Assembly: GCA_050084515.1 (NCBI GenBank)
Contig: CM114271.1
Coordinates: 27,962,001 to 28,026,000, forward strand
From: Blasia pusilla
Lineage: Eukaryota
Length of the DNA: 64,000 bases
Direction: 5' to 3'
Positions 1 through 62,696 of the stretch are shown here, piece by piece (positions within the stretch are counted from its first letter, which is position 1; every line of letters starts with the position of its first letter). The position numbers and the translations under genes were made by a program. The notes beneath the pieces are model-generated. The model searched no databases. It saw only the letters and a list, made by a program, of their open reading frames with translations, and was not told the DNA's origin.

Positions 1-59
1 ATCCACTAACAAATGGGAGGGGCGCTCCACCCTCGCATACGCCCTCCATAACACCACAT

Positions 60-8374: not shown

Positions 8375-9482
8375 AATTACAAAACTCACAAATCAACCCC
8401 AAAGCAATTTCTCGACTAGAGAATCCAAGCTTCGAAAGTTTCAATTTAAACTTCCCACATACCTCAAACATATCCTTGAGAGCCCTAAATTCTTTGCGAA
8501 CGTTGCCAAACATTTGAAAAGAAAACTTATTGTAAGTATGTAGTTGTCATGCTCCAACTTGAAAAGTAGGTTGCAACATGTGCCCTATGTTGAAATTTGT
8601 TAATATCTAGTTTAATCATGCTCTAAAAGTAATTAGTCAAATACTAACTTAGTTGGATACTAATTTAGTTAGCTAGAGATAACTTAGTGTTCCTCTATCT
8701 TTTTAGGGTAATCTTGAATTAGGGCAATTCTCGAGTTAGGGCTAGCCACCATCTGTTATTTAGGGTATGGATCTGTTCAAGAAGATCCAAGGGCCAGAAG
8801 GGCTCACCTTCATGTATATAATGTCTCTATTTAGAAAGTAAAAGTCAATTCTACAGCATGCACAATTTTGATAAGGACTCCTGAGGCTCTTGGTCCTGCT
8901 GCCGTGTAATCAGAGAGTAGGAAGAGGAGATTGAGACTTATTGTTGTGCTTGCTAGAGCCTCACTGGAAGGCAAGTTATTTTGTCTAGTATGCTGATGGA
9001 GATTGTTTGTGCTCAATGGTGAGCCATGTCTGATCTCTGAGCTAGTGACATATGAGGACCTGTAGTGTGAGTGCAAGGTGTGACTGTAGAATCCTTCTTA
9101 GTATCTCTTAGATAGTAAGAAGAGTCACAACATGGTAGGGCTCTGATTTGGCAATAGAAATAGGAACTGATTTATTGATTGTGTACAAGCTGAAATCATG
9201 GATGGTCTAGCTGATGCTAGCTCTGACTTTGTACACGGAGATACTTCTGCTGGTCCATCATTTTCTCATAAATTATAAAACTCACAAATCAACCCCAAAG
9301 CAATTCCCCGACTGGAGAATCCAAGCTTCGAAAGTTTCAATTCAAACTTCCCACATACCTCAAACATATCCCTGAGAGCCCTAAATTCTTTGCGAACACT
9401 GCCAAACATTTGAAAAGAAAACTTATTGTAAGTGTGTAGTTGTCATGCTGCAACCTGAAAAGTAGGTTGCAACATGGCCCCT
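8375..9482. repeat. ~210-bp direct duplication (8375-8586 / 9271-9482) flanking the solo LTR
   Basis: AATTAyAAAACTCACAAATCAACCCCAAAGCAATT...GCAACATG appears on both sides of the LTR. Confidence 0.85.
8588..9268 (+). mobile_element. solo LTR, family X (~681 bp)
   Basis: TGTTGAAATTTG...TTTTCTCA; near-identical to 15839-16134+26510-26894 and to 33723-34405 (reverse complement). Confidence 0.85.
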
Positions 9483-10095
9483 GTTATCCAAGGAAAATTT
9501 TCTCCCCGGAGTGACAATACATTGCCTAATAAAAAACATTGAATTCGTTTCTTATCGTATAATCTGATGTTTCTTGAGCCTCTTTCTGTTTTTTTATGAG
9601 CCAGTTCCGTTATAATAACCATCAAAAGTTAGTTACAGTGCAACTCATCTCCAATCAAACACTGCTTTTTAGAGAATCGATTCGTAAAATAAGCAAATTC
9701 TAAACTCTCAATCATGTGAAATGTTGAAAGAATTTTGTGCAGCTTTAGTAGACAGCAAGAAGTCAGACTATGCTTAGTAAATGACCTCATTCAATTTAGG
9801 AGGAACTCTATGCTAGGTACATGATTACACCTGACGCTCTTACATAAAACTACCGATTCTATCCAGCAAGAAAGTCTTACGTTACTGACCTGTCATCTCA
9901 CACTGCTTGTTTAATTCCTGGACCGTAGAGACTACAAGGGCGCACACTGGTTACCTGTCACCTCCCATTTCTTGCTTAATACACGGATCGTAGAGGTTCC
10001 AAGGCTACTACGTTTTCCACTTACTTCAGAAACATAAGCTGTTCTCTGATTGGTTCATTCTGTACACCCAAGTTTGGCTCTTTCCTGCAGAAAAC

Positions 10096-10312
10096 TTAAA
10101 TTACACCGAGGATTGAGGTGGGTCTCTGTACTAGCTTTGGGTGTGTAGCAGCATAGATTGAAGTGTTAACGTCAGCACTGAGATGACGAAATAGGTGCTG
10201 CAAATCTGGACGTAGGCGCTCCACGGCCTTACTACATAGCATAAGAGTTTCAGGTCGGGGTTTGCCACCTGCTTGGTTTGGTCCCTGTACCTCCAGCATC
10301 ACCGCATGATGC
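10096..10312 (-). CDS. MED23: MED23 exon 21 (stop)
   Basis: HHAVMLEVQG...SIYAATHPKLVQRPTSILGVI*. Confidence 0.9.
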
Positions 10313-22300: not shown

Positions 22301-25300
22301 CCTCCATCAGTTCTAAGCACTTTCACTTTCAGGCCAAGCTCATTCTCAACCTCATTGACAAAGTGCTGAAATCTGTCCAAGACTTCATCCTTTGTCTTCA
22401 TCAAGTAGACAAACGTCCTTCTTGACTTGTCATCAGTGAAAGAAACAAAGTATTTTGCACCTCCGTGAGATGCTACTTTCATCGGTCCACACACATCAGA
22501 GTGGATGAGCTCAAGCTTTTCTCCTACTCTAGTTTTGGACTTCTTAGGTGTAGAAGTTCTACTCTGTTTCCCTTCTATACAACCTTCACAAAAGAATTCT
22601 GAACTATCAGGTTGTAAATGGAATCCAACAACCATCTTCTGGAGTTTCCTCATATTCTGAATTCCCAGATGTGCTAGTCGCCTATGCCAAGTGTCTAAAG
22701 AATTTTCTTCAGATCCAATGTTGGCCGATTCTTCATCAACATGTGTTGTATGAAGTTTATAAAGCTGATTGTTCACAATCTAAGCTTTCCCGATTTCAGT
22801 TGTATCATGATCAAAAATAATGCAATGATCATCTGTAAACAACACTTTGAAACCCTCACTTGCTAAGACTTTCACAGAGATCAGATTTTTTCCTATCTCA
22901 GGAATATAAAGGACATTTTTGAGAAGTAATTCTCTACAACCTTTCAGATTTAGATGAACTTCACCTTTGGAAGAAGTTTCCAGCTTGTGATTGCTTGCCA
23001 CTGTTACATTGCGTGTAGAGATTTTCTGAATGTTGCTAAAACAACTTCTCTTACCGCACATGTGAGATGTTGCTCCACTATCAATGTACCAAGCATCCCC
23101 AGAACTTGATTCGAATGGTACATCACCTTCCAAAGTCATGAATAGTTGATCATCATCGCTATCTTCAACCACATGAGCTTTCTCGGAAGTGTTGAACTTT
23201 CCCAAGCTTTTCTTCTTGCCTTTCAGGTCTCTCACCTTTTTCCAACAGACCTCTTCTGTATGGTTCAGCATGTTGCAATATTTGCACTTGAGCTTCTTCA
23301 TGCCCTTTTCATTGTACCCTCTCTTACCAACCTTGGCAGCAAGAGCGATCTCATCAGATACATTGTTCCTACCAGCATGCTTCGATTCTTCATTGATGAG
23401 TTGTCCGTTGACATACTCCCAGGTAAGTTTCTTTTTCTCTTGAGCTTCCAGCACAGTACTCACAGTCTCAAAACTCTTAGAGAGAGTGCTGAGAAGTAGA
23501 CCTACTTGGAAAACATCGTCTACTTTGAGACCTCCTTCGATGAGAGTAGAAATCATCCCTTTCACCCTCGCCACATGAGAAGCAACAGGCTCAGATTCGT
23601 CCTGGCGCAAGTTCACAAGGTTCTGAAGGACACTAAAGATGTGTCCTACAGATTCAGTTTGTAAGCCTTCTTTCACAGTCTCCCACATGGCATGAGCATT
23701 TGGTTTGTCACGGGCCATCTCTATAGCAGAGTCTCCCATGTTCATAACCAATGCAGCCATTGCCCTATTGTTGGATTTGATCCATTCTGCATCCAACAGT
23801 TGCATTGCTGTTGGTGCACATTGGACCACTTCCCAACAATCCTCGTGACAACAAAGGATCTTCATTTCAAAAGACCACTTTCTCCAATTAGTAGCGTCTA
23901 ATTTCTTGCTAACCCAGTGATCCATATCACTTCGTGGGCCCATAACCTGAAAGAAAAACAGGAGTAAACAAATACTGACTTTGATTACAGAGCTAATTTG
24001 TTTCTCCAAGCTCCAAGAAGTTACAGCAGATTACAGATACATGGAATAGCTTCACAGACGTCAAATAGGAAAAGGAAACTCTGTACTTACAAAAACATGA
24101 GAGAGATCTGATTGATCTACTACTCACAAACTTCCTCCCTATAGGAAGAAGAGACTCTCTACACTATTGATGCCTTTTCAAGCAGCACACTATCTCCTCC
24201 AGCAGCAGGTCCTCCAAAACATCAACTCCTTCTATCACAATAGGTCAGCCACCCAAGCTGAGGGGCAGCAATCATGAAGTTCGCAGGTCCAGGAAAGTAG
24301 AGAAGAGAATAAGAGTGCTCTGGTATGCCTCTTGCTCTTATAGGATAGCCCCTGGCTATCTTAAACCCTAAAAGTCTTTAACTAAGGCTAAAGGAGGCTA
24401 TTATGAAACCCTAAAGGTTTTTAACTAAGACTAAAAAAGCTATTGCGAAAACCTAAAGGTCTAGTTAATAAACCTAAAAATAGAATTTATCCTATAGATA
24501 GAAAAAATTAACTTTTCATAGTAAAAAACAGATTTTTTCGCTCCTGATCTTACAGTTGCAATTTCAACACTTGAACCATTTTCTTTTGATGTAGTTGCAA
24601 TAAATGCTGATTGTTGAGATGTCCCATACGATTGTGCCAGAGGTTGGATGAACTTCTAGCTATCAAAATTGTCGATGGAGTACAAGGTTGACATTCAATT
24701 AGATACATGCCATGCCTGGCAAAACCTGTACCTAAACAATGACCTTGCTTGATGAGTTCAAAAGACATATTGTGAGAATAGAAAAGGGTATCTATAGAGT
24801 TTTCAGCAAGTTTCTTCACAGAAACAATATTGTGCTGTCCTGTAGGAATGAACAGAACATTGGAAAGAGTATGTAATTTGAAAGAGCCTTTGACAAAAAG
24901 CTTTAATTGAACATTCCCAGTAGCTGTAGCATATATTTTGCCATTGCCTATTCCAAAAATGAGAATTGGAGAAATAGGAAGGAAATTAGAGAACAGTTCT
25001 CTTTGACAGCAAACATGGGAATTTGAACCAGAATCAAGGATCCAAAGTTTGGAAAGATCTGGGAAAATAGATGTAGAGGATCTTTGTATCATAAACAGAT
25101 AGAGTGGTTCATCTGGTTGTAGTTCCTCAGATGTGGAGCATGTTAATGCTTGAGTGATAGGTGAAGTATTGAGTAGTAAAGATGAGGTATCTTCTGGTTG
25201 AGTTTTGCAAAACTCACGGAATTTCTTGAGAAATTTTCTGTTAGGACATTTGCTAGAGATGTGATCTTTCTCATTACAAATGTAACAGTAAGGCTGTTTT

Positions 25301-34300: not shown

Positions 34301-37300
34301 GAACACTAAGTTATCTCTAGCTAACTAAATTAGTATCCAACTAAGTTAGTATTTGACTAACTACTTTTAGGGCATGACCAAACTAGATATTAACAAATTT
34401 CAACAGAGAAGTCTCACATACTCTCTGTTTTGTGCAAAAGCCATAGCAAGATGTGTTGAAATTGCAACTATAAGATCAGGAGCGAAAAAATCTGTTTTTT
34501 ATTATGAAAAGTTAATTTTTTCTATCTATAGGATAAATTCTATTTTTAGGTTTATTAACTAGACCTTTAGGATTTCGCAATAGCCGATTTAGTCTTAGTT
34601 AAAAACCTTTAGGGTTTCATAATAGCCTCCTTTAGCCTTAGTTAAAGACTTTTAGGGTTTAAGATAGCCAGGGGCTATCCTATAAGAGCAAGAGGCATAC
34701 CAGAGCACTCTTATTCTCTTCTCTACTTTCCTGGACCTGCGAACTTCATGATTGCTGCCCCTCAGCTTGGGTGGCTGACCTATTGTGATAGAAGGAGTTG
34801 ATGTTTTGGAGGACCTGCTGCTGGAGGAGATAGTGTGCTGCTTGAAAAGGCATCAATAGTGTAGAGAGTCTCTTCTTCCTATAGGGAGGAAGTTTGTGAG
34901 TAGTAGATCAATCAGATCTCTCTCATGTTTTTGTAAGTACAGAGTTTCCTTTTCCTATTTGACGTCTGTGAAGCTATTCCATGTATCTGTAATCTGCTGT
35001 AACTTCTTGGAGCTTGGAGAAACAAATTAGCTCTGTAATCAAAGTCAGTATTTGTTTACTCTGTTTTTCTTTCAGGTTATGGGCCCCTGGTAAGTGATAT
35101 GGATCACTGGGTTAGCAAGAAATTAGACGCTACTAATTGGAGAAAGTGGTCTTTTGAAATGAAGATCCTTTGTTGTCACGAGGATTGTTGGGAAGTGGTC
35201 CAATGTGCACCAACAGCAATGCAACTGTTGGATGCAGAATGGATCAAATCCAACAATAGGGCAATGGCTGCATTGGTTATGAACATGGGAGACTCTGCTA
35301 TAGAGATGGCCCGTGACAAACCAAATGCTCATGCCATGTGGGAGACTGTGAAAGAAGGCTTACAAACTGAATCTGTAGGACACATCTTTAGTGTCCTTCA
35401 GAACCTTGTGAACTTGCGCCAGGACGAATCTGAGCCTGTTGCTTCTCATGTGGCGAGGGTGAAAGGGATGATTTCTACTCTCATCGAAGGAGGTCTCAAA
35501 GTAGACGATGTTTTCCAAGTAGGTCTACTTCTCAGCACTCTCTCTAAGAGTTTTGAGACTGTGAGTACTGTGTTGGAAGCTCAAGAGAAAAAGAAACTTA
35601 CCTGGGAGTATGTCAACGGACAACTCATCAATGAAGAATCGAAGCATGCTGGTAGGAACAATGTATCTGATGAGATCGCTCTTGCTGCCAAGGTTGGTAA
35701 GAGAGGGTACAATGAAAAGGGCAAGAAGAAGCTCAAGTGCACATATTGCAACATGCTGAACTATACAGAAGAGGTCTGTTGGAAAAAGGTGAGAGACCTG
35801 AGAGGCAAGAAGAAAAGTTTGGGAAAGTTCAACACTTCCGAGAAAGCTCATGTGGTTGAAGATAGCGATGATGATCAACTATTCATGACTTTGGAAGGTG
35901 ATGTACCATTCGAATCAAGTTCTGGGGATGCTTGGTACATTGATACTGGAGCAACATCTCACATGTGCCGTAAGAGAAGTTGTTTTAGCAACATTCAGAA
36001 AATCTCTACACGCAATGTAACAGTGGCAAGCAATCACAAGCTGGAAACTTCTTCCAAAGGTGAAGTTCATCTAAATCTGAAAGGTTGTAGAGAATTACTT
36101 CTCAAAAATGTCCTTAATATTCCCGAGATAGGAAAAAATCTGATCTCTGTGAAAGTCTTAGCAAGTGAGGGTTTCAAAGTGTTGTTTACAGATGATCATT
36201 GCATTATTTTTTATCATGATACAACTGAAATCGGAAAAGCTTCGATTGTGAACAATCAGCTTTATAAACTTCATACAACACATGTTGATGAAGAACAACA
36301 TTGGATCTGAAGAAAATTCTTTAGACACTTGGCATAGGCAACTTCAGCACATCTGGGAATTCAGAATATGATGAAACTCCAGAAGATGGTTGTTGGATTC
36401 CATTTACAACCTGATAGTTCAGAATTCTTTTGTGAAGGTTGTATAGAAGGGAAACAGAGTAGAATTTTACACCTAAGAAGTCCAAAACTAGAGTAGGAGA
36501 AAAGCTTGAGCTCATCCACTCTGATGTGTGTGGACCGATGAAAGTAGCATCTCACGGAGGTGCAAAATACTTTGTTTCTTTCACTGATGACAAGTCAAGA
36601 AGGACGTTTGTCTACTTGATGAAGACAAAGGATGAAGTCTTGGACAGATTTCAGCACTTTGTCAATGAGGTTGAGAATGAGCTTGGCCTGAAAGTGAAAG
36701 TGCTTAGAACTGATGGAGGTGGAGAATACATCAACAAACAGTTAAAAGATTTCTTATCTCAAAAGGGAATCAAGAGTCAAGTTACTGCAAGGAGCAGTCC
36801 AGAGCAGAATGGAGCAGCTGAAAGATTGAATAGGACATTGGTTGAAAGAACCAGGTCCATGCTCTCCACAGCAAACCTTGGTCGAGAATTTTGGGAGAAG
36901 CCTAACTACTGCCAACTACTTGAAGAATTTGAGTCCTTCAACAGCATTGGACAACTTGACACCAGAGGAAGCATGGAGTGGTAAGAAACCAGATCTCTCT
37001 CACCTGAAAGTTTTCGGGTGTTGTGCTTATGTTTTGATTCCAAAGGAGAAAAGAACAAAGATGGACTCCAAATCGGAGAAATGCATATTCTTAGGGTATG
37101 AACCTGGATGTAAAGGGTACAGACTCTTCAATCCAAGCACTAAGAAAGCAATCAGAAGTAGGGATGTCTATTTCAATGAGAAAGATCTTGGTAGCAGCAT
37201 TACTAGCACTGCAGAAGTCAGTTTTGAAAAGGAGTTGACATTCTTTAAAGATATCAAGGTTGAAGAAAATGATGATGAGGTTGATAAATCTCCAAGGAGA

Positions 37301-40300
37301 TTATCTCCAACCAGATTTTACGTAAGGAGAAAGCCTGATGTAGAAAGATCAGAAGTACCATTAGAGAGTACCGATAGTTATCTTACAGGCACAGAGCAAC
37401 AACCTCCAGTTCGAAAATCAACAAGGACATCCAAAATTCCAATTCGACTTGGGAAAAGTCTTGGAAAAGGTGAGACTGACCAGCAAGAAGAAAGATTCAC
37501 AGAGGAATCGCATCTGGCTGAAGTGTGTTACCAAGCCCTTGATAATGCAGGTTGTACATCAGGAATGTTAGAGGCTGATGAACCGCTAAGTCTTGAAGAA
37601 GCTCTCACTAGAGATGATGCCATCCAGTGGGAGCAAGCGGTACATGAAGAGATGGGATCTCTCCAAAGCAATCAGACTTTTGAGGTGGTGAATTTGCCCC
37701 CCATGAGGAAGGCAATCGGTTGCAAGTGGGTCTTCAAAGTGAAAAGAGGACCTAAGAATGAGGTGGTCAAGTATAAAGCTCGACTAGTTGCTAAAGGCTA
37801 CAGTCAGATTGAAGGACTTGACTATGCAGAAACTTTTGCTCCTGTAGCAAAATTTACTTCCATAAGAAGCTTGCTAGCATTAGCGGCAAAGCATAATTGG
37901 GAGATACATCAAATGGATGCAAAAACCGCCTTCCTCCATGGAGAATTGCATGAGGAGATTTACATTCAACAACCAGAAGGTTTCAAGATGGAGACAAGGT
38001 ATGGTTGCTGAAGAAAGCCTTATATGGACTCAAGCAAGCATCAAGACTCTGGTATGAGAAAATTGACGGTTATTTTCAGAAGTTGGGTTTTCACAAGAAT
38101 AGGGCAGATCCTAGTGTTTATCACATGTTGAATATTGTGGTTCACATAGCACTGTATGTAGATGATTTGTTACTCCTCTGTGAAGACCTGAAAACTATGC
38201 ACAGGCTGAAGCGTGGACTGAGTGAAGCTTTTGAAATGGTTGATCTAGGAGAAGTAAATTATTTACTCGGAATACAAATCACTAGAAATAGAGATGTTGG
38301 TTGGATCAAGATGAGCCAAACCAAATATGTGAAGAATGTCATCAATCGTTTTTCTATGGGTGATTGTAATCCAGTAGGGACACCCATGGAGGTAGGAATC
38401 AAGCTTACCAAGGAAATGTGTCCTCAAACTGAATTGGAGATGAATGAGATGGCTAACATACCATATCAGAATGCAGTGGGCTGCATTATGTATGCAATGG
38501 TTGCCACAAGGCCAGACCTTGCATACACAGTGGGAGTTTTGAGCAGGTTCATGCACAACCCTGGCTTGCAACATTGGCAAGCTGTCAAGCGTGTGATGAG
38601 ATACCTGAAAGGCACTCACGACTTTTGCCTCACATATATCAAAGAGGCAGAAGTAGATCTAATTGGTTACAGTGATGCTGATTGGGCAGGAGATCTAGAC
38701 AATAGACAATCTACTTCTGCATATTGCTACTTGCTGTGTGGAGGAGCTATTAGTTGGAGCAGCAAGAGACAATCCACCGTAGCACTTTCCACATGTGAAG
38801 CAGAATACATGGCCCTAACACATGCTGCCAAGGAGGCAATATGGCTTAGACGCCTCCTTGATGGTTTTGGATGCCATCAAGCAAGACCTACAAAAGTGTA
38901 TGCTGATAATCGGGGCAGTATTGATCTAACCAAGAATCCGATACACCATGCGAGGACAAAGCACATTGATATACAACATCACTTTATACGGGAAAAGGTT
39001 GGAGTGGAATTTGAATTAGAACACTGTGCAACAGAGGACATGGCAGCTGACGTGTTCACAAAATCTCTCACCAAGGTTAAACACCTAAGGTGCATGGAGT
39101 TAATTGGAATACACCTGAACTCACATTGAGTGGGAGTGTTGAAATTGCAACTGTAAGATCAGGAGCGAAAAAATCTGTTTTTTACTATGAAAAGTTACTT
39201 TTTTATCTATAGGTAAAATTCTATTTTTAGGTTTATTAACTAGACCTTTAGGATTTCGCAATAGCCGATTTAGTCTTAGTTAAAAACCTTTAGGGTTTCA
39301 TAATAGCCTCCTTTAGCCTTAGTTAAAGACTTTTAGGGTTTAAGATAGCCAGGGGCTATCCTATAAGAGCAAGAGGCATACCAGAGCACTCTTATTCTCT
39401 TCTCTACTTTCCTGGACCTGCGAACTTCATGATTGCTGCCCCTCAGCTTGGGTGGCTGACCTATTGTGATAGAAGGAGTTGATGTTTTGGAGGACCTGCT
39501 GCTGGAGGAGATAGTGTGCTGCTTGAAAAGGCATCAATAGTGTAGAGAGTCTCTTCTTCCTATAGGGAGGAAGTTTATGAGTAGTAGATCAATCAGATCT
39601 CTCTCATGTTTTTGTAAGTACAGAGTTTCCTTTCCTATTTGACGTCTGTGAAGCTATTCCATGTATCTGTAATCTGCTGTAACTTCTTGGAGCTTGGAGA
39701 AACAAATTAGCTCTGTAATCAAAGTCAGTATTTGTTTACTCCTGTTTTTCTTTCAAGATGGAGTTCAGCAATAGCATACCAACTATTCTATATGCAAACT
39801 TATGATGCAAAATTCAAATGAACACTATTCTAAGTTGAGAAATGAAAGCAGCCACACTTGCAATCTTCTACAGTTGTACACACCTTCTTAGAGTCGGTGC
39901 TGAGAGGAGTTGTGACAGTATCAAGACGAAAGGCTTGAGCGAGAAGCCATGTGACATGATTACTGCGCATGACTGGTTGCTCCCCAAGGGTAAAACGTGC
40001 CGCTAGTTTATAAATGAACTCCAGAAAGTCTATGTAACCACTGCGCATGAAGAAGTAAAAAAGGTCTGCAAAACTCAGCCACTCTTGCCATCGACCTGCC
40101 TCAGTCATTGAAACATGAACTGAACCATTGCCTGAAGCACACGATAACAATTGAGTTACATAAAGAACACACTTGGGATAGAAGAATCATCACAGAAACA
40201 CCTACAGAAATCCGAATAAAGTTAACACTCAGGTAGCCTTGTGAGGTCATCGGTCTGTTCAATGTACTGAGTATCTTAGAACGCTCATGAGGCACCAGCA

Positions 40301-51950: not shown

Positions 51951-52032
51951 GCTCCTCCCGCCGGTAACAAAATTCTATTGCCACCCGAGCATGCTCAGGT
52001 AGCCCCGCCGCGACCTCAGGTTAGCTTAACCC

Positions 52033-52399
52033 TGTCATGACCATACGGATTATGTCGTAGAGTATAGTGTGCTAGTAGAGGCCATACCTTATGTAGGGCC
52101 GCAGTGTTTAGGTAGAGATGCGATTTCATACATAGGGTTGGGGGTTACTCGATTGAGGGAGAGTTTTCCAGTAGGGCCCGCTCTTAGGTTGGAGGATATA
52201 AGGTGGAGTGCACTCAAAGAACAGTCAGTTCTTTGAGTTGAGCCTGTTGCGTTGGGAGTTAGCCTTGGTAGTGAGTAGAGCTCTTGGCTATGGTGTTTCC
52301 CCAAGCTTTGACCTAGATTCTCCCATCGTGGAGTGGGTTTGGCTCGATTGTATGTGATTCTATATGTGTTTTATGACAGTAGGTTTTTCACGAATTTCA
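52033..52399 (+). repeat. repeat A1
   Basis: Direct repeat of 62239-62589, with roughly ten differences including a ~17-bp indel. Confidence 0.95.
52197..52238 (+). promoter_or_regulatory. candidate TATA box and transcription start of the retroelement
   Basis: TATAA at 52197-52201. AGTTCTTTGAGT starts 30 nt downstream and is complementary to 52399-52410. Confidence 0.55.
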
Positions 52400-53810
52400 C
52401 TCAAAGAACTAGAGTCGATCGATTCTAGCTTCGATTGTGGATCAGTAGGATCTGGTTAGGGTTGATTGTGTACTCAGCCGTGGATGTTCGTGGCTTGTGG
52501 CCTATGTTGGAGGTGTGAATCTCGTGGGTGGTTGGTTGGGAAAGAAGCGCCTTGCTAAGAGCTTTCCAACTCGCTTTAGATCGCTGGATTTCATCAAGGA
52601 ATTTGGAAGTTATCAAGGATTGAAGATTCTGGTTCGTGTTCGACGGTTTTCTGATGTGGAGAGCTTGCAGTGCGGAAGCTCTGTTGAATTTCATCCAGAT
52701 CAGGTGAGAGTTTCCTGTTGCTACTTGTATTGTGATCTCGTATGAAGCTATCTGCTCGAGTGTGTGGAGTGTTGCGGATTTCTGCGTGCATGAAACTGGG
52801 CGGAAGCGCTGTCGGATTTGCAATTCTGGAGGTGTATGGACAACCAGTTTGTCTGATTTTTAGCTCGGAGTACAAAGCTTGGTTGTAGCTGATTTTTTGT
52901 GGAGAGATAGCTATGGTGGACAGCGGATTAGAGAGGCTGGTTGGTTGGTGACTCGTTCATTGTTGGAGATGCCTATCCCGTTGGGGGCGCCCTGGTTGGG
53001 CCTCTCCCCACAGCAAAGCATGGCGAACGGGGCATGTCTCGAGCATTTCTCGGCATTTCGAGGCTTCGAGGCAACTCGTGGTAGCTCGGGGCGAGTGGGC
53101 GTGAGAGGCAGAGTAAGGAGCAAGGAGCAAGCAAGCAAGCTTGCTTGCTTGGGCGTGAGGCAGTTTTTGCAAGATTTGTGATTTGAGTGTTGCATAACTG
53201 GTCACCCATCTTTGGGCTATTATGCCTGGAGGACGCTTAACTGCTGAGTTCTTAACTATGTCAAGGTACACACTGGTGTAGCTCATTTGGTGCTCTTTGG
53301 AGATGTGTTAGGCGCTTTATGCATCTTAGGTTTTTTATTGATGTACCTCTAGCGCATAGTACGGTGTAGCCTCTCCATGCAAGTGATATTTTCAGGTGTT
53401 GCGAGTCCGACTAGCACGTCATCGACCCGCGGCGGAGTAGCTATTGCGTTAGAATTGTGTGGTGGGTTCTGTGGATTCAGGGGGCGCCACATTTGGTGGA
53501 TTGTGTTACCTTGATTTCCATTTGCGAGTGGAGGGTTGTCGTTGGACTTCCTGTGTTTGAATCCCCTCCATCGTTGCTTCTTGCTTGCGCGCCCATTGTT
53601 AGGGTTGACGCTGATTTCCAGAGTAGTGTTACTCCTGTGTGCTATCGGTAGTGAGGCTATAGTGATGACCAGCAGACCGTGGGAGGCTTTTTGTGGTGAT
53701 GACAGGTTGGGTTGCCTACACCCATAGCTAGTAGAGCTAGAATAGTATAGCGACATCGACGTCACTTGGTTACTTAGTGGTGGTAATTTGGTGGTGGTGC
53801 GGCATCGGCG

Positions 53811-55300
53811 TTGGTCATCACGGAGCTGTCGGGTGGTCTGGTTGGGGACCGTGGTGCAGACAGTGGTGGTTTCACACGGAGTGGATTTAGGTATCGGCTA
53901 TCTTTTCCACTTTCGACGGTTGATGAAGAGGAGGACGAGGGTGTTCCAAACACCGAGTCTTCTACGTTTTTATCGAGTGTTGCAGCTCCATTGATTTGGG
54001 ACATGGACGGGATATATGGGTCCATGAAGGGCCCACGACGATACTCGAGTGCAGTGGGCACCATTGAGTTGGAGGACTTCATGCAGGAGTTTGATACGTG
54101 GTGTGATATGCAGATGTTGCGGAACGCCACTTTGTTTACACCCTTCTTGGTTTGGAAGGGGTTGTTTCAGCACTTGGAGGGACCACCCATGGATGATAAC
54201 CATGAGTTAAGGAAGGACCATGTTGCTGAGATTAAGGCATGGAGACAATATTGGTCTCCAGGCTATGTGTCTATCACCCATGGTGGTATTGGTAGTAGTG
54301 CTCCTACTATGCCATCCAGCCCGACGTTGAGTGGTACGAGTACGAGCCGGAGTGGGGGTACCAGTGGAGGTACCAGTGGGGGTACTAGTGGAGGTACTAG
54401 TGCCCCACCATCGTTTAGCCCGGTTGCACAGTTCTTCAAGAGGTTGAAGAAGAACTATCAAGGAGTGAAGACAGAGAAGTTGAGGAGTCTTCAAGAATTT
54501 GAGCGAAAGATTGGTGAGAGTCTTCGTGAGGCATACACTCGTATGCGACGCTTAATTTCAGTTACCAGGTGTGGCGAGGCTCAGCGATCCAGTTTTGGTA
54601 TGGGATCTTGGGGAGAGAGTTGCGCCAGTAGGTACGTGATGCTACTCTTATGAGTGATGATTCACCCACATTGACCCATGTGTTTGCTCTATCTGAGAGG
54701 ATTGAGCTTAACATGGTGAAGGAGAGAGTGGTGACATCCGCATTCAGTAGGGATACAACTACTACTTCTCGTGTTCAGCAGCCCACCTCACAGTCTCGTA
54801 GTAGTGGTGGTGGTAGTAGTAGTGGGAGTCGTGGTCGTAGAGGGACACTTGCGCAGAGACCATTGCCTTTATTTGCTGCCCCGTAGCAAGGACAGTCATG
54901 TTGGACATGTGGAGATGATCATGTTAGGAATTTTTGTCCCCAAGAGGATGGGAGACGGACTTTGGAGGATGGGCCTCAGTCGGCACCAACTCAGTGTGAT
55001 CATTGAGGGAGACCAGGTCATCCTCGAGAGCGTTGCTTTGATCTTCATCCAGAGTTGAGATCAAGCCGCGGTCGTGGTGGAGTAGCTCCGAGAGGCCGAG
55101 GTGGTAGAGGTGGACTAGTGGTTGGAGCGCCTACGGTGGCCACCCCTACCACTACGACAGAGTCAGCTATGGCTGCCAGGATTGAGCAGTTGGAGCAGAA
55201 GTTGGCTACTATGGCTGGTATCCAACATAGATCAGGTTCGGGAGGAGGGGCTTCCACCTCTTATGGAGGGGATTATCTCTCTTATATGGCGAAAGAGTGC
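53811..55300 (+). pseudogene. gag with two zinc-knuckle remnants
   Basis: Retrotransposon gag-like GESLREAYTRMRRL; CWTCGDDHVRNFC and CDH*GRPGHPRERC; GGTS repeats. Confidence 0.75.
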
Positions 55301-55773
55301 AAAGACGTTGAGTTGAGGCATCGATTTGCGATTCTGAGAGGAGCCACTCGGCGTCGAGCCACGTGGTGATCTTGTGGAGTTGGACCCATAGAGGGGTGAG
55401 GTGGGGAGGCGGCTAGGCTTCCTGGTCATTCTTGTTGTCTCGAGGTGCTTAGGACTCCATCCATGGTTCCTATGCAGCCTATTGAGCCGACAGTGGGGAT
55501 CGAGGCATCTACATCGCGTGTAGTAGACACGGATGCAACATCTAGTCTTGATTGCGGATGGCAACCAGTGTTGGGATCCCCATTGTTTTAAACCCACGGA
55601 GGCGATGGCTTTAGGAGTTGACTTAGCTCATGTATTTGACTCTCGGACCACGTTGTGTGAACGTGGGGTGTTATTCTTGCACGTCTTTGAGGTGGATGAG
55701 GGTGTTGCGGTGGAGCAACCCTCTATGTCGTGTAGCATTGAGTACCAGTGCTACTTAGCGAGCGGCGGCGAAG

Positions 55774-56240
55774 ATGGATGCATTACCACCGGCCACCATT
55801 GATCGTGAGAGGCTTACACCTGGTGTATGTATGTTGGACAACTGGAGTGGGATATTCCGATTGGTGAGTCCTACAGGACAGGTGTATAGACCAGATAGAG
55901 TCTTGTTAGACTCTAGTGCCCAACCTTTGATGTTGGGAAAGGCGGCATATATTGGTTTGGGTATTCGGAGGTCAGAGCTTGAGCCTTGCCCATTCCAGAT
56001 TCAAACATCGCTTGGAGGAGCCAATGATAGGTCTCAATTCATTACACGGGAGAAGTTTTATGAACAGTTGAGACCAGATCATGCGATTGATAGCTCCCGG
56101 TTGGGAGTATCTGCGGTAGTCACATCAGCCGAGTCGTATGATGTACTAGTTGGAGGAGCAGTATTGTACCCGATGGGTTTTCAGATGGATTCTTTGGTGA
56201 GACACATCTTATAGACCTGGTTGGCAGTCCGGGGATGGAC
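55774..56240 (+). pseudogene. retropepsin-like aspartic protease
   Basis: VLLDSSAQ (DSG-like) and YDVLVGGAVL (xxLG motif). Confidence 0.75.
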
Positions 56241-56619
56241 GTATGAGCCATGTTCCTGTGAGATTTATTTATGGGGCTCGACGAGGAGGGTCTTCCCCAA
56301 CAGTGTTAGCATCTGTGGCTGGTTTTAGTGGAGTAGTCACTTGGCCAGGAGACTTTTTGGAGGGTAATGTTTCTGCTATGGATTCTCCTATGCATGAGGA
56401 GGTAGAGGAGGTCCCTATTTTTGCAGCACTGGCATCCTCATCGTTGGATGTGCCACTTTGGAGTTCAGGCGGTGCACTACGGCAGAGGCGTCGCCTAGTG
56501 CAGAGGCTTGGTGTGAGGTTATACCTCACGAGGAAGAGGAGGCCTCACGGCGGACTCCTACTTCTGGTCCAGTTGGGTTATCCCCTTTGGATACTACAAC
56601 CATTGTATGGCAGTATCCG

Positions 56620-57560
56620 CCGGAGGGCATTTGTGTGTTAGATCTCTTTGGTGGAATTAGCACTGGTTTGGCTGCAGTGTTGCAGGCCGGTATTCTTGTG
56701 CGGAGATTCGTGTATGTGGAGCGAGATGAGACGGCCCAGAGAGTCTCATCCTGACATATTGGTCAGTTAATGGGGAGATATCCTGAGTTGTTGCCGCCAT
56801 CAGCTATTCGTGGGTACCAGCGTGCTTTGCCGTCACACATTTCATTGTTGGGGGCGCAGGACCTTGAGAGGGTTGGCCCTGTGGATTTGGTGATTGCTAG
56901 ATGGCCATGTTAGGGTCATACACGTGCTGCTCGTGGTGAGGGATTACACGACCCTAGATCTCGATTGTTTTGGGAGATGTTACGGGTATTACGATATCTT
57001 CAGGTTCATCAGGCACGTGCTCTAGCTTACATTCTGGAGAATGTTCCATTGTTGGGTGACACTCTGACCCGGATGATGGCGAGTGTTCATGAGGTGCGGT
57101 CTTGGATCGGACCAGCGGTGTTGTTGGATGCTGCGCAAGTTGGCTCGCGTGCACATCGTCCACGCTTGTGGTGGACAAACTTGTTGCCTAGGGAGGTTCT
57201 ACGTCGAGCATATGATGCAGTGCAGCGGGATCCTTGCCTTACAGTGGAAAGTATCTTGGACACTGGGCGACTTTCTCAGGTGGTGAGGGTTATTGATCGA
57301 TCACCCATGGCAGTGGTGAACCGTGTGGGCCAACCTAGGATGGCACTACCCACATTTGTGAGTTTTCCCTCATCACATGCATACAGGGACGGTGGTCATG
57401 GGCTTGTATGGGATTCTCATATGCGACAGTTGGTGAAGCCTAACGCTGATGAGAGAGAGCGTGCGATGGGATTTGCTACTGGTGTGACAGCGGTTTCTTC
57501 CATTTGTGAGGCTTCACGACGTCATGTGTTGGGTCAGGCCATGGACTTGAATTGTTTGAC
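56620..57560 (+). pseudogene. C5 cytosine DNA methyltransferase domain (DNMT3/DRM-like motifs), in frame with RT, with two premature stops
   Basis: Motif I VLDLFGGISTG; II YVERD; IV VDLVIARWPC*G; V DPRSRLF; VI ILENV; VIII RAHRPRLWWTNL; IX ERERAMGF; X RRHVLGQAM. Confidence 0.9.
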
Positions 57561-57869
57561 TTGGATTTTGAGTCTTGGTATGGCCGAGCAACGTCAACTC
57601 TGGACTATGTATGTGGGTCTTCCACCCCTTGTAATGAGCTCGATGGCTACAGGGACGGTAGGGGCATCGGCTGGGGGCGAGGAGAGTAGTATTTTGCATC
57701 CTTGGAGTAAATGGGATGTAATGGTTGGGCATGTGGAGTTTGTTGCTCATGCTGGTAGAGGAATTATTTGCTCAGATGATGGTGTAGCTAAGGGTGTACC
57801 ATCTTGTGAGGGGGTTATGAGTGACCTATGGCATAAATCCTCTCCCTCTAGTGTGCCAGTGGAGGAGAC

Positions 57870-59250
57870 TTGGGAGCCATTACTTGGGCCCAAGTTTACG
57901 GGAGGTGAGAAACGACGCTTGACACAGTTCCTACATGCTTATAGGAGTTGTTTTTCCTTTAGCATAAAGGAGTTGGGTTCTCTGGTGGGACCCGGTATAC
58001 GGATTGATTTGGCTAGTGATACGCCAATCTTCCGTCGTCCCTACCGATATTGTGACATGGAGAGGGACCTAATTCAGAGTAGGACGTTGGACCTTTTGGA
58101 GGCTGGATTAGTGGAGTTGTCGCGTGGAGAGTATGCATCAGCCACTGTGATGCCTGCTAAAAAGGATATGCATGGCAACTACACGGATAGGCGGATGTGT
58201 GGAGATTACCGTCCTATCAATCAGCAAACCAAGGCCGATAGGTATGCCATGCCTACACCTGAGGAGATCTTTGATGTGGTGGGACAGGCAAAGATTTTCT
58301 GTGCTTTGGATCTTCGGGCAGGATACCATCAATTGCCGATTCGGGAGAGTGATAAGGCCAAGACATCATTTTGGGGTGTCAACTCTCATGGCAAGGATTG
58401 TTTGTACCAGTGGAAATTCTTACCCTTTGGGTTGAAGAATGCATCTGCCGAGTTTTAGAGAATGATGGACAGGATCCTAGTAGGGTTGGATTTTTTTCGG
58501 TGTTACATCGATGATATCTTGGTGTTCAGTAACACGGTGGAGGAGCATCAGATACATTTGCAGATGGTGTTTGAGCGGTTGAAAGCTCATGGTCTACGTT
58601 TGCATCCAAGAAAGTGTAAGTTCTTCCATGAGGATGTTGAGTACTTGGGTCATGTGATCTATCCAGGTGGTTTGGGAGTTCAGCAAGCAAAGGTGGAGGC
58701 TATTGCACTTATTCCGCGTCCGGTAGATGTGAGTAGAGTTCAAGCATTCATGGGATTGGCAAACTACTATCGGAGGTATGTGAAGAGATTTAGTGCTATG
58801 GCAAAGCCTTTGAACCAATTGCTGAAATCAGATCAAGAGTGGCATTGGGGAAATGATCAGGAGAGAGCTTTTGTGGAGCTTAAGGCCAAGTTGGTGGCAA
58901 CGCCTATCTTGAGGAGACCTATCAGAGGGCGCCCATTTCAGTTACACACTGATTGGAGTAGGTTGGGACTTGGAGCGGTGTTGACACAACATGATGATGA
59001 GCACATGGAGTTTGTGGTGGTTTATGCAAGTTGTTCGAATAATGCAGCGGAGTCGCGCTATAGTTCATATGAGGGAGAGTGCTTCGCAGTAGTGTGGGCT
59101 GTGGCACACTTTAGGTGTTACTTGTTTGGCATATAGTTTACCCTTGTTACTGATCACCAGCCGCTTAAGTGGTTGATGAAGTCTGACAAGCTTACAGGGA
59201 AGCTTGCACGATGGGCTCTTATCTTACAGGAGTATGACTTCCAAGTGGTA
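57870..59250 (+). pseudogene. Ty3/gypsy-type reverse transcriptase and RNase H
   Basis: RMCGDYRPIN, LDLRAGYHQ, LPFGLKNA, YIDD, KCKF...YLGH, LHTDWS, YSSYEGE, TDHQPL, LARWAL; stops at 58456 and 59134. Confidence 0.95.
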
Positions 59251-59699
59251 CATAGACCTGGAGTTGCCAACCTTGATGCTGATGGGTTGAGTAGGAACCC
59301 ATGTACTAGCCAAGAAGATACAACATGGGCTAGATGGCATGGCGAGGTTGTTGAGGAGATGGTGCCAGGTTGGCATGCATCCGCCTTTTTATGTTGGTTA
59401 GGGGTGGACTATAGTATGGAGGACCACATGATATCTTACTCTAGTCAGAGGGTAGATGGCCAGCCTTCAGATCCTAAGGTGGGAGATGGTGGTACGGATC
59501 AACGTGATATTCATGATGATGCATTAGTGTTGGAGTTCCTACGGACCAGTAGGGTACTAGGCATAGTGAGTGCCAAGGAGCAAGACCGTGTTCTTCAACG
59601 TGCTAAGAGGTATCAATTGGAGGGAACACATATTCTCCGTGTGTGGGAGGATGGTAGAGTACGAGTAGTGCCGCATTTGGCGAGAGAGAGCGCACAGCG

Positions 59700-60919
59700 A
59701 CATGCCCATGAGGAGTTGGGACATTTTGGGGTAAAGCGTACGTATAGCTTACTCCTTGGTCAGTATTGGTGGCGTGGCATGCATCGAGGTGCAGCGATTG
59801 GTGTCACATTGTATGGTTTGTGACCGGGTGAGGGCATCATTCAATGCCCCTACACCACGATTATACCCTTGCCTATTATGGGGTTGGAGTTCTTTGTTGG
59901 AGTGTGGACTTTTGGGACCGTTACCGTTGGATGCGACATCATCGATATGTGTTGGTGATGGTGGAGCACTTCTCCATGTGGATTGAGTTGGTGGCATTAC
60001 GACAAGGCAAGTGAGGAACGGCGTATGCGTTTCTTGATAGAGTGCTTAGTCATTTTGGTGCACCGGTTGAAGTCTTTGACCGACTAGGTACAAAGTTTGT
60101 GGTGAGTTTGGTCTTGTGTGACAAGGCATTGATTGATCATCGGACCACGTCTCGAGATCATCCGAGGCGGATGGTTTGGTGAGCCTGTGGTTGAGATGGT
60201 GAAGAGGGCATTGCGCAAGTATGGCCTCTGAAGGACATCTTGGAGACCAGGATATTCGGTTGCAATGGTTAGCCATAGGGTATAGGTTCGATCGCCAAGC
60301 ATCCTTGGCTTCCTTCTCACCTTATTTTTACGTTATACGGCCGAGATCCAGACTTGCCAGCAGCAATTCGTCGGGAGTCTAGTGAGGTGGTGAACCTTGA
60401 TGACCCAGAGATGTGGATGAGAGGGCAGAGCTCTTTCGGAGAGTTAAGCCAACAGCCTTTGAGAATCTTGCCATTGCTCAACATAGAGATACGTTGTGGT
60501 ACGCAACCATTCGGGGTGGAGGTTATCGACCATCGATTCGTAGGTTCCATGTGGGAGACTATGTCTATTTGGAGCAGATTGCACCGAAAACCTTGGATGT
60601 GACGGCAGGCCGCACTATTTTACGATTGCGCGAGGTGTTAGCTTCTGGAGTTCTCATGTTGGAGGGTTGTGATGGAGTTGTTTGGAAGGACCATGTACGT
60701 AATTGTGTGCCATGTCATCTTCCAAATGTGGATGGTACTGTTGACCCAAGCTTAGCCATGATACGTGCTAGCTTGAGGTGCATATTGTGTGGGTCTGCTG
60801 GTAACGCAACCCGTATGTTGGTGTGTGATTGGTGTTCTAGGGGTTGGCACATGATGTGTTTGACTCCACGTATGGATGTTGTTCCTACTGGAAGGTGGGT
60901 TTGTCCTCGATGTACTTAG
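59700..60919 (+). pseudogene. integrase with C-terminal PHD finger (60779-60913)
   Basis: HEELGH...YWW...CMVC; frameshifted core; FHVGDYVYL module; CILC...VCDWCSRGWHMMCLTP...WVCPRC (C4HC3). Confidence 0.9.
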
Positions 60920-61055
60920 GAGAGGTAGATGACTTGATCTTTGCATGATATGGATTACAGATGTGCGACTAACGATGGGGCAACCTAGCACGCGGCCTTC
61001 TGATTCGTGCACCCAAGAAGGTATATAGCATGTAGTAGATGTATAGGGCTACCTG

Positions 61056-62088
61056 TGTCGTGCGCCTACTCTCCTTGAACGTTAATCTTGTTTGTTGCGG
61101 AAGCGTGCGTTCAGTAGGTCACGCTCTCAACGCTGATCTGCATCCAAACACGCACTTCGGTTAGTCGGGTCTTGGATCAATCAGCGGGATTACTTTCCGA
61201 GTTCTCGTCTCGGACTCTCTCTTTAAGCTCAACCTTCCTAGTTTCGCGGTTTCCAACACGGGCAAGTCTCGAAAGACTTGGGACAGACTTTCTGGTCGGT
61301 TCAGGAATCTGAAACGGCATTTCGCGCCTAGCGGTTCCAACTATCCGATGAACATCCAATGAGTTCCTCACCAAGACTCGCACGAAGTGAATCTCGGGTT
61401 GGAATCCAAGTGTGGCGTACAAAGTCCACTCCCTTGGATCAGGTTTGGGTTTCGGGTTTCCGCGCCAAACTCCCGTTTCATCCCGTGCCTCTGAAACGCC
61501 GTTTGGCGCCCAAAGTGGGGTTTCGTTTCCCGAGACATCTCAGAGAAGGTACTCCCCTTACTAGTACTTCTGGGGATCTCCGGGGGCCCCCTACATTTAG
61601 GGAAAGACACCCGGGCCTCTCCAATTGGCCCTCAACCCGATTGCTCTCTGAATTGTTTTCGGCCAATATCTCAGCCTATACTTATGCGTTTGCTAAGATC
61701 TTTGGTGCGTTGGAAGCGTCTTGAGATCAGCTTTCCAACGCGCTCTTACTTGTCCCAAACGCATCTTGGAGCTCAACGTTATGGTCCTAAACACAGTCAG
61801 ATTCTCCCAAACGCTAGTCGTGTTCCAAACTGGTTCTCACCTCTTTGGCAACCAACCTCCAAGACTCAACTCATCTCAAGTCTGGGCTCGCGTTTGGTCT
61901 AGGTTTCCTGGTCGCGACCACTAACGCATGAAACGCACAACTCTGTTCCGCGTTTCATCTCTTAGACTTTTCCAAGAGACTCTTCCAAACGCCTCTCCAA
62001 AGCGCAAACCTCGCGGCATGAGTTCCTTTGAGTTCTGATGTTTCGCTTGGCGCGTATTTGGTGTTGTTTGGTTATGAGGGTCGCGACA
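61056..62088. mobile_element. solo LTR (1033 bp) nested in the 3' UTR of copy 3
   Basis: Ends TGTCG...CGACA; 5-bp TSD ACCTG (61051-61055 / 62089-62093); absent at the matching position of copy 2 (~6955). Confidence 0.85.
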
Positions 62089-62129
62089 ACCTGGGAGTTA
62101 GAGGGACGTTACTTCCAGTTAGGGGGGCG

Positions 62130-62696
62130 AGTTGTGGTACACTTGTGTTTGTGGATGCTCTCGTCTATGTTATGTATGTATGTGAGTATGGTATGTCAGC
62201 GATGTATGTTGTATGACGATATGGATTCGCACGACAGCTGTCATGACCATACGGATTATGTCGTAGAGTATAGTGTGCTAGTAGAGGCCATACCTTATAT
62301 AGGGCCGCAGTGTTTAGGTAGAGATGTGATTTCATACATAGGGTTGGGGGTTACTCAGTTGAGGGAGAGTTTTCCAGTAGGGCCCGCTCTTAGGTTGGAG
62401 GATATAAGGTGGAGCAATTCTTTGAGTTGAGCCTGTTGCGTTGGGAATTAGCCTTGGTAGTGAGTAGAGCTCTTGGCTATGGTGTTTCCCGCAAGCTTTG
62501 ACCTAGATTCTCCCATCGTGGAGTGGGTTTGGCTCGATTGTATGTGATTCTATACGTGTTTTATGACAGTAGGTCTTTCACGGATTTCAAGTTGTGGTAC
62601 ACTTGTGTTTGTGGATGCTCTTGTCTTTGTTATGTATGTATGTGAGTATGGTATGTCAGCGATGTATGTTGTATGACGATGTGGATTCGCACGACA
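62130..62696 (+). repeat. B1-GC-A2-B2 terminal repeat block
   Basis: B1 (62130-62236) and B2 (62590-62696) are 107 bp with 3 mismatches. A purine tract AGGGGGG lies just before B1. Confidence 0.95.

Follow-up and report, generated by a model that had tools for sequence, protein, structure and literature searches.

The 64,000-nucleotide stretch of Blasia pusilla DNA analysed here (the window; contig CM114271.1, positions 27,962,001–28,026,000) carries, at 52033–62696, a retrotransposon that encodes its own DNA methyltransferase (DNMT). This unit is almost certainly an inactivated insertion, in a bryophyte-type genome, of the Gypsy-DNMT3 retrotransposon family, which was first described as KnitGypsy-Dnmt3 in the charophyte alga Klebsormidium nitens (de Mendoza et al., 2018; PMC5890265). 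Its domains follow the Ty3/Gypsy-type order gag–protease (PR)–DNMT–reverse transcriptase (RT)–RNase H (RH)–integrase (IN)–PHD finger, as determined with Pfam and tblastn and as had been described in an earlier reading of the letters alone (the sequence-only reading). The element belongs to the same family as KnitGypsy-Dnmt3 and hence represents no new kind; both this kind of element and the mechanism proposed for it were in print before, and what is new here is a wider host range and a set of anatomical details. The explanation favoured below, taken whole (identity and mechanism together), is in our judgement evenly poised between holding and failing.

The DNMT lies between PR and RT and is, judged by sequence and predicted fold, a catalytic domain of the DNMT3 type whose motifs run in linear order. 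Its frame reads, in succession, F-G-G (motif I), W-P-C (IV), E-N-V (VI), and H-R-P-R-L-W-W-T-N (VIII). A comparison with PDB gave 41 rows at E ≤ 1, of which DNMT3A, DNMT3B, or DNMT3C account for 29 (best E = 5.8e-12), chains of the plant DRM enzyme DRM2 for six (E = 1e-4 to 6e-3), M.HaeIII for one (E = 0.1), and chance matches for five. The DRM alignments cover query residues 10–138 only, which would be expected if DRM is permuted and the window domain is not. An AlphaFold model built with 57 aligned relatives has a predicted local distance difference test (pLDDT) score of 87.6, with residues 1–347 confident; all Foldseek rows listed for this model are DNMT3A/3B/3C (E down to 1.8e-19; target template-modelling (TM) score 0.80–0.85), and an ESM Atlas look-up returned “DNA methylase, Streptophyta.” Motif order, PDB sequence matches, and Foldseek agree on the DNMT3-like, non-permuted enzyme that had been proposed from the letters.

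Two kinds of host gene differ from this domain. Plant DRM enzymes have motifs VI–X before motifs I–V, whereas the order here is linear, and host DNMT3 genes are multi-exon with PWWP/ADD or other N-terminal companions typical of host genes, whereas here only retroelement domains flank the DNMT, which forms one open reading frame (ORF) with Gag-PR in the relative L034. The catalytic domain of animal DNMT3A/3B is the best match in both sequence and fold, with motifs I, IV, VI, and VIII in the same order; however, the element DNMT is only about 22% identical to it, is accompanied by no PWWP or ADD domain, and has extra segments, with a query TM score of about 0.6 beside the target score given above.

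The relatives are numerous. A word-indexed protein search returned 45 proteins at E ≤ 1e-5, comprising 14 “hypothetical proteins” of Marchantia polymorpha (63–76% identity; one cluster with 18 member sequences), one protein each of Calypogeia fissa and Sphagnum fallax, and 29 proteins without an organism name. A HMMER scan of 1.84 billion representatives gave 2146 clusters at E ≤ 1e-3, and because 232 of these reach E ≤ 1e-30, chance is ruled out; the best 150 representatives are all element-type. Domain mapping on the collected proteins (phmmer; RT positions via a query from P0037) distinguishes two architectures: type I, that of the window, is GAG-PR-DNMT(-RT-RH-IN-PHD), and type II is RT-RH-DNMT-IN-PHD. 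The 238 proteins with a full DNMT segment include 49 of type I and 147 of type II, the remaining 42 being undeterminable. Named type I hosts are Marchantia, Calypogeia, Sphagnum, three Closterium strains, and Klebsormidium nitens; named type II hosts are the chlorophytes Scenedesmus, Monoraphidium, and Cymbomonas. The integrase–PHD backbones of the two types are homologous (41.8% over 479 residues).

DNMT trees follow this division. On a FastTree phylogeny of the 238 segments the I/II label changes once (38–46 changes with shuffled labels), and type II is absent from the type I side, which comprises 66 tips (support 83). An IQ-TREE quick tree of 50 rows likewise separates the types (Shimodaira–Hasegawa-like approximate likelihood ratio test (SH-aLRT) 96) and recovers three clades with a support of 100 each, namely a bryophyte clade that includes the window, a Closterium clade, and a Klebsormidium clade. 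Both trees are unrooted and omit host DNMT3, DRM, CMT, and MET1 sequences; they fit either one capture and one move of the DNMT or two captures from related sources.

The constraint on the DNMT was assessed from codon alignments of 62 related metagenome loci, as the ratio of nonsynonymous to synonymous substitutions (dN/dS; Nei–Gojobori) in pairs with the window copy. Across copies, the DNMT is as constrained as RT: dN/dS is 0.18 for the DNMT (24 pairs; median dN 0.151, dS 0.826), 0.16 for RT (20 pairs), 0.19 for RNase H (15 pairs), and 0.27 for the integrase C-terminal region with the PHD finger (14 pairs). The same DNMT DNA read out of frame by one or two positions gives 0.78 (26 pairs) and 1.46 (24 pairs), respectively, so that the check on dN/dS suggested by the sequence-only reading indicates purifying selection. 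In close pairs (dS < 0.3) the ratio is 0.46–0.66, as expected from neutral decay after insertion; most loci are themselves degenerate, an ORF of 400 residues being absent from 52 of the 62, and stops interrupt 24 of the 31 DNMT segments compared. Residues of the catalytic motifs are conserved deep in the family. Among 19 type I sequences there is no variation at the Phe and Gly of motif I, at Trp and Cys in WPC, at Glu and Asn in ENV, or at an Arg, Trp, Thr, and Asn in motif VIII. A wider set of 57 sequences shares the catalytic Cys, the ENV Glu, and one motif VIII Arg without exception, and across 131 sequences that cover both architectures each of these three residues reaches a conservation of at least 90%.

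These data bear on whether the DNMT is a mere passenger with no role in the element, either a fragment of a host DNMT3 gene that a few copies picked up fortuitously or a host gene into which retrotransposons inserted. Such a view could draw on the window copy, which is dead and narrowly misses the PF00145 threshold. Against it, the position of the domain is kept in hundreds of diverged polyproteins of both types, its dN/dS equals that of RT, a single ORF runs through Gag-PR-DNMT in intact relatives, and target duplications enclose the whole unit. We regard the passenger view as refuted, with next to no probability left to it, and the disruption of a host DNMT3 gene by insertions was rejected on the last two grounds. 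The recurrence of both domains in the window copies and in hundreds of relatives, together with the constraint, makes the DNMT and the PHD finger family traits rather than a chance insertion, as had been proposed.

KnitGypsy-Dnmt3 is described in the passages cited here as a K. nitens Gypsy element with an unpermuted Dnmt3 in Pol and Ka/Ks < 0.2, and a figure legend states that its repeats are the “same as a DIRS retrotransposon” and its domains Gypsy-like (de Mendoza et al., 2018; PMC5890265). The window element shares the Gypsy type, the unpermuted DNMT3 in the polyprotein, the DIRS-like repeats, and purifying selection (<0.2 there, 0.18 here). The two differ in host, a charophyte alga in one case and a bryophyte-type land plant in the other. 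The main text of the 2018 paper makes no mention of a PHD finger, which the window element has, and its main-text passages, figures and supplements aside, do not mention the DNMT/RT stop, the self-priming site, or the target duplications found in the window family (PMC5890265). In K. nitens, the domains of protein KFL_009030040 (P0301) are arranged as PR-DNMT-RT-RH-IN. Its DNMT is 44% identical to that of the window over 260 residues (E = 2e-54), its integrase C-terminal region is homologous as well, and the protein falls within the type I clade (SH-aLRT 96). The sequence of P0301 is incomplete and stops immediately short of where a PHD finger would lie. P0301 is probably one of the KnitGypsy-Dnmt3 copies of the 2018 paper.

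Methyltransferase-bearing retrotransposons had been reported earlier from dinoflagellates and one charophyte alga. In the 2018 passages, the acquisition of the DNMT is read as specific to the K. nitens lineage (PMC5890265), and later texts, in the parts consulted, cite only “streptophytes (Gypsy-DNMT3)” from that work (PMC12344493, 2025; preprint 10.64898/2026.05.21.726589, 2026). The range of Gypsy-DNMT3 now includes bryophytes (Marchantia, Calypogeia, and Sphagnum, with proteins annotated only as hypothetical) and Closterium, with a sister architecture in chlorophytes. A Klebsormidium-specific capture therefore looks too narrow, and the spread of relatives argues for a much older family, or for transfers. 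The sequence-only reading knew of no characterised land-plant case, and in the full-text literature searched, with supplements and most subscription journals outside its scope, no paper on such elements in liverworts, mosses, or other land plants was found; a mention in the supplementary tables of 2018 or in the Marchantia genome paper is conceivable. Marchantia is a genetic model with near-identical copies, in which the role of a transposon-borne DNMT becomes testable in a tractable land plant. The added anatomy (a leaky-looking stop, a self-priming site, split repeats with target duplications, and an integrase-borne PHD finger) provides entry points to the life cycle.

Terminal repeats and a flanking 5-bp duplication show that 52033 and 62696 are the true ends of one inserted unit, exactly as delimited before. 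The repeats are split in the layout A1...B1-A2-B2, and AACCC is duplicated at the ends. Repeat A starts with TGTCATG and repeat B terminates in CGCACGACA. A1 and A2 differ by nine mismatches in 350 aligned columns, all of them transitions, plus 18 gap columns, and B1 and B2 differ at 3 of 107 positions (104/107 identical). The B1|A2 junction (62233–62242) is a 10-bp palindrome, GACAGCTGTC, which recurs in metagenome locus L040. The whole layout is also present in loci L040 and L048, where the same element ends are flanked by their own 5-bp duplications (CAAGG and ACATA, respectively), so that such duplications occur in all three complete copies; the B1-A2-B2 end is kept in locus L019 and in the third copy in the window. 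A plain long terminal repeat (LTR) element with a 3′ tandem duplication was considered and rejected, because the same layout occurs in independent copies with duplications of their own.

In elements of the DIRS/PAT/Ngaro type, the layout is also A1...B1-A2-B2, and the internal B-A junction repeats the joined ends. The likeness of the window family to DIRS is confined to these split direct repeats: DIRS elements have a tyrosine recombinase and make no target duplication, whereas the window family has a DDE integrase (H2C2 + rve) and 5-bp duplications. No tyrosine recombinase domain was found with Pfam in the ORFs of L034 and L053 or in 10 scanned ORFs of the window.

In the near-intact loci L034, L039, and L023, Gag-PR-DNMT is followed by a single TAG and then, in the same frame, by RT-RH-IN-PHD; Pfam supports both halves of L034 around its TAG. 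The stop contexts are TAG CAG TTA, TAG CAA TCA, and TAG CAA CCA in the three loci, and among 35 instances of the surrounding motif, 33 have TAG (23) or TAA (10) followed by CAA CCN and two have TAC. In Marchantia, too, proteins P0002 and P0003 terminate behind their DNMT. UAG-CAR-YYA is the readthrough signal of tobamoviruses, and an in-frame UAG followed by CAR-YYA before RT is the feature by which relatives of the element resemble readthrough of the murine leukemia virus (MuLV)/tobamovirus type. The likeness is imperfect in the large group nearest the Sphagnum protein, which has CAA CCC. The sequence-only reading placed the DNMT in frame with RT and had the enzyme packaged with RT. The frame is indeed open between the two domains in the dead window copy, but the intact and better-preserved relatives have a conserved stop there, which indicates that the DNMT is made with Gag and protease as a Gag-PR-DNMT product and would be joined to RT only through the predicted readthrough.

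A putative primer-binding site, CTCAAAGAACT, which is not tRNA-like, directly follows A1 in the window copy, L040, and L048, and is complementary to a site inside repeat A, the putative start of R. The complementarity extends over 11 nucleotides in the window copy (perfect), 16 in L040, and 9 in L048; for an 11-mer the chance expectation is about 1e-4. Diverged copies at the start of the window keep a different 16-nucleotide pair, and therefore the priming pair covaries. In Tf1-type self-priming, the 5′ end of the RNA pairs with a site after the 5′ repeat, and the arrangement here, in which the site after the 5′ repeat pairs with sequence inside the repeat over 11–16 nucleotides, resembles it. 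The polypurine tract AGGGGGG precedes B1 and not A2. Together, priming site and polypurine tract predict a linear complementary DNA (cDNA) of the form B-A...B-A, of which the integrated form A...B-A-B would be a circular permutation. The integrated form could be explained by a two-LTR circle opened at the palindrome. In its fullest version, which we consider quite unlikely, this reading makes the element one branch of an ancient lineage, spread across the green plants and equipped with its own methylation writer and histone reader, whose DDE integrase opens the two-LTR circle at GACAGCTGTC and integrates from the circle like some bacterial insertion sequences, and which may add de novo methylation in bryophytes; were it true, a DNMT at Gag-level abundance and transcribed sister copies could supply that methylation.

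The PHD finger at the C-terminus of the integrase scores 39.2 bits against PF00628 (cut-off 24); its C4HC3 pattern is visible in the translation, and it directly follows the integrase C-terminal region. The nearest solved PHD fingers are those of KMT2C/D, CHD4, DPF2/3, ATXR5, KDM5A/B (PHD1), PHF21A, BAZ2A/B, UHRF1, and AIRE, which we take to be mostly readers of the unmodified H3 tail. As in chromoviruses, a histone-tail reader is fused to the C-terminus of a DDE integrase; chromoviruses carry a chromodomain at this place, whereas the window family carries a PHD finger, and Pfam called no chromodomain in the window copy, L034, or L053. Both the likely chromovirus-type logic, in which the reader would tie integration to chromatin state, and the presence of PHD fingers in retrotransposons were known before, as cited in the part of PMC6673714 used here. 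The combination of DNMT and PHD finger into one “writer-plus-reader” module, as first conceived, finds no support; the two domains lie at opposite ends of the polyprotein in the window architecture. PHD fingers in retrotransposons were reportedly described by Kapitonov and Jurka in 2003 and, in REM1 of Chlamydomonas, by Perez-Alegre in 2005.

A mechanism for active relatives can be assembled from these parts; as a complete chain it is tentative, and we lean slightly against all of its links holding at once. Sense RNA would begin inside repeat A, and ORF1 would yield Gag-protease-DNMT, while a leaky UAG in CAR-YYA context would pass some ribosomes into RT-RNase H-integrase-PHD. Reverse transcription would be self-primed by the RNA 5′ end at the site after A1, as in Tf1. 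The DNMT3-type enzyme, present in particles at Gag-like abundance, would methylate cytosines of the new DNA of the element, which would enter chromatin pre-marked, with either camouflage among methylated repeats or self-limitation as the outcome. Integrase would create the 5-bp target duplication, and the C-terminal PHD finger would tie integration, in a chromodomain-like manner, to the state of the histone H3 tail, probably the unmodified tail of silent chromatin. Readthrough, self-priming, the activity and substrate of the enzyme, and the ligand of the PHD finger we infer from the sequence. Methylation of cDNA by a retrotransposon DNMT is a hypothesis already discussed in the 2018 paper (PMC5890265).

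Transcription was assessed in three raw RNA-seq runs with the same species label, with the strand of the first mate taken as in most stranded libraries; in the best DNA sequencing run for the stretch, 0.53 of its sampled words were present. The runs placed 1722, 1633, and 1960 reads on the element, of which only 46, 24, and 50 are at least 99% alike, nearly all others being 95–99% alike; because so few reads reach 99% identity, sister copies are taken as the main source of the RNA. The DNMT is covered at a depth of about 8–53, and the first mate lies on the minus strand at about 10:1, which means sense RNA if the libraries are stranded as usual. Sister copies are thus transcribed, in sense on the assumed strandedness. 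Since 23, 28, and 10 reads skip 61051–62088, the transcribed sister copies lack the insertion nested there. Depth drops after about 62447, inside A2, which fits an RNA end near the predicted R at the 390-nucleotide width of the bins. An RNA joint from 62696 to 52033 (15 reads, with GT between) was discounted as a sign of circles or tandem copies, as B1-A2 junctions of sister copies could give the same reads.

An alternative to methylation of the element's own new DNA is that the enzyme acts on DNA but is selected for a role in trans on host chromatin, around the insertion or genome-wide, or as a post-burst brake that helps both host and element. Both ideas were raised in the discussion of the 2018 paper (PMC5890265). 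The intact relatives place the DNMT in the abundant Gag-PR product, untied to RT, so that much of it could be free in the cell, and the transcription of sister copies means that it could be present in cells. On the other side, the fairly high CpG content of the elements fits neither strong self-methylation nor its absence, and the methylome of K. nitens is ordinary and plant-like although its genome carries such elements, according to the same paper (PMC5890265). We consider this alternative unlikely, though deserving of attention.

A second alternative is that the domain no longer acts as a DNA methyltransferase in vivo and instead methylates RNA, for example the genomic RNA, or serves as a DNA-binding, chromatin-binding, or oligomerising module of Gag-PR. 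The domain adjoins Gag, the nucleic-acid-packaging part, and the sole functional test of a family member, that of the Klebsormidium domain in yeast, gave no DNA methylation; human DNMT3B, a real DNA methyltransferase, was equally negative in that assay (PMC5890265, passages on the yeast test). The catalytic Cys, ENV Glu, and motif VIII Arg are invariant or nearly so in 57–131 sequences, which would be needless for a mere binding module, and the fold best matches DNA-bound DNMT3A/3B. This alternative is improbable in our view.

Several points count against the favoured explanation, namely an inactivated Gypsy-DNMT3 insertion whose active relatives methylate their own new DNA. The yeast result stands among them, although its authors call it inconclusive (PMC5890265). 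The window copy is unable to make any protein: its DNMT has two stops, of which that at 56911–56913 directly follows the Pro-Cys of motif IV, another residue stands in place of the near-invariant Gly that precedes Trp-Pro-Cys, and both gag and integrase contain frameshifts; the copy also lacks the DNMT/RT stop codon seen in relatives. The PF00145 match on which the DNMT call was to be checked fails narrowly in this copy, at 21.7 bits against a cut-off of 22 with stops read as X, and the separate ORFs of the window, in which the DNMT is split by its two stops, give no PF00145 match at E ≤ 0.01; the relatives do pass, with 51.1 bits in L034 and 28.3 bits in the second copy in the window. The RNA reads stem from sister copies, their sense orientation presupposes the usual library strandedness, and the RNA start and end are predicted positions. 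Readthrough, self-priming, and the PHD ligand rest on sequence patterns known from other systems. The unrooted DNMT trees fit either direction of a DNMT move between the architectures. The CpG observed/expected ratio is 0.62–0.83 in the three window copies and 0.27–0.47 in the rest of the window (Copia elements 0.27–0.29, remaining measured stretches 0.29–0.47), which speaks against a naive prediction of heavy lifelong CG methylation; in relatives elsewhere it is 0.28–0.79, and a high ratio is thus no fixed family trait.

The window copy at 52033–62696 is a dead, ordinary insertion (Table 1); in the intact relative L034, Pfam finds RVT_1, RNase H, H2C2, and rve in that order. Gag has no Pfam match in the window copy, and in ORF1 of L034 residues 677–820 match Asp_protease_2 with E = 2e-4 and 22.4 bits, below the cut-off of 24.3. 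RT-RNase H is 55.5% identical to ORF2 of L034, and the integrase core changes frame 1→2→3→2 in tblastn comparison with the same ORF.

Table 1. Features of the Gypsy-DNMT3 element and of its further copies in the window.
Feature	Positions	Strand	Remarks
Left target-site duplication AACCC	52028–52032	+	Same five letters at 62696/62697–62700
Repeat A1 (TGTCATG...ATTTCA); its position corresponds to a 5′ U3 (part)-R-U5	52033–52399	+	Recurs as 62239–62589
Site inside A complementary to the 11 nucleotides after A1; putative R start, Tf1-like scheme	52227–52237	+	Reverse complement of CTCAAAGAACT
Putative primer-binding site CTCAAAGAACT, not tRNA-like	52400–52410	+	Kept right after A1 in window, L040, L048
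gag region, split over three frames	53787–55369	+	tblastn to L034 ORF1 and Marchantia P0002
Aspartic protease region	55759–56278	+	37.6% identity to L034 ORF1 residues 677–820
DNMT3-like C5 cytosine methyltransferase domain	56590–57600	+	Stops 56752–56754, 56911–56913
RT + RNase H, same frame as DNMT	57790–59500	+	RVT_1, RT_RNaseH_2, RT_RNaseH; stops 58456–58458, 59134–59136
Integrase zinc-binding (H2C2) domain + catalytic core	59668–60422	+	Integrase_H2C2 E = 7e-9; core over three frames, several stops
Integrase C-terminal region, common to whole family	60404–60778	+	70% identity to 6283–6786; homologous stretch in Klebsormidium P0301
PHD finger (C4HC3)	60779–60913	+	PF00628 E = 7e-10
Nested 1,033-bp insertion, ends TGTC...GACA, foreign to original element	61056–62088	+	Flanking 5-bp duplication ACCTG; RNA reads skip it
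Polypurine tract AGGGGGG, directly 5′ of B1	62121–62127	+	Kept before B1 in window, L040, L048, third copy
Repeat B1	62130–62236	+	Recurs as 62590–62696
Repeat A2	62239–62589	+	Window self-comparison
Repeat B2, right element end (...CGCACGACA), then right target duplication	62590–62696	+	Self-comparison
Second, diverged, cut copy	1–4330	−	DNMT 1–659, PR, gag to ~2635, leader, priming site ~4328–4313
Third, 5′-truncated copy	5014–7716	+	RNase H-IN-PHD, B1 ~6998–7118, A2 7121–7628, B2 7629–7716

The element was about 9.6 kb long before the nested insertion of about 1 kb. The latter lies in its 3′ untranslated part and has ends that resemble those of the family itself; a solo A-B repeat and a small non-autonomous relative are both candidates for its identity. 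The segment 51270–51860, shortly before the insertion site of the whole element, is G+C-rich and contains several imperfect direct repeats of about 36–80 bp at offsets of about 48–180 bp. Within the element, some RNA reads (7, 9, and 21 in the three runs) pass from 59467 to 60448, with an identical stretch of 10 other letters at the joint, and depth over 59711–60101 is very low; some transcribed sister copies may lack the integrase core or have it replaced, or the window copy may be rearranged there.

The sequence-only reading had noticed that the DNMT and the PHD finger recur in diverged copies near the start of the window, and both were located. The DNMT of the second copy (1–659, minus strand) has 52.6% amino-acid identity to that of the main copy over 194 residues. 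RNase H-IN-PHD of the third copy is 64–70% identical to the main copy, and its PHD finger (about 6661–6786, plus strand) scores 28 bits against PF00628. The two copies meet head to head at 5013/5014. On the minus strand next to this joint (4331–5013), a full A precedes B, after which come a second copy of the last 60 nucleotides of A and then the priming site. The arrangement resembles either a junction of the tandem or circle type that has suffered a deletion, or an inversion of some age. The head-to-head structure is old, because B1 and B2 of the third copy are only 76% alike.

Among the relatives, the DNMT of the window and the loci nearest the Sphagnum fallax protein (L001–L033 and others, about 70% identity) are separated by a dS of only about 0.8, and in the trees it is grouped with Sphagnum and Marchantia in an unresolved trio; given the age of the moss and liverwort lineages, so small a dS may reflect either transfer between bryophytes or slow rates. 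In locus L053, an intact type II polyprotein (RT-RH-DNMT-IN-PHD, 1576 residues) is followed downstream, at 5883–12341, by a further same-strand open frame, 2153 residues long.

Elsewhere in the window, two Copia-type elements with long open frames lie in opposite orientation, at 19888–24030 (minus strand) and 35039–39129 (plus strand). Their Pfam scores are identical for two ORFs (e.g., RVT_2, 2.5e-40 in both), so that they are near-identical and probably young copies. A third Copia element is located at 16584–19343.

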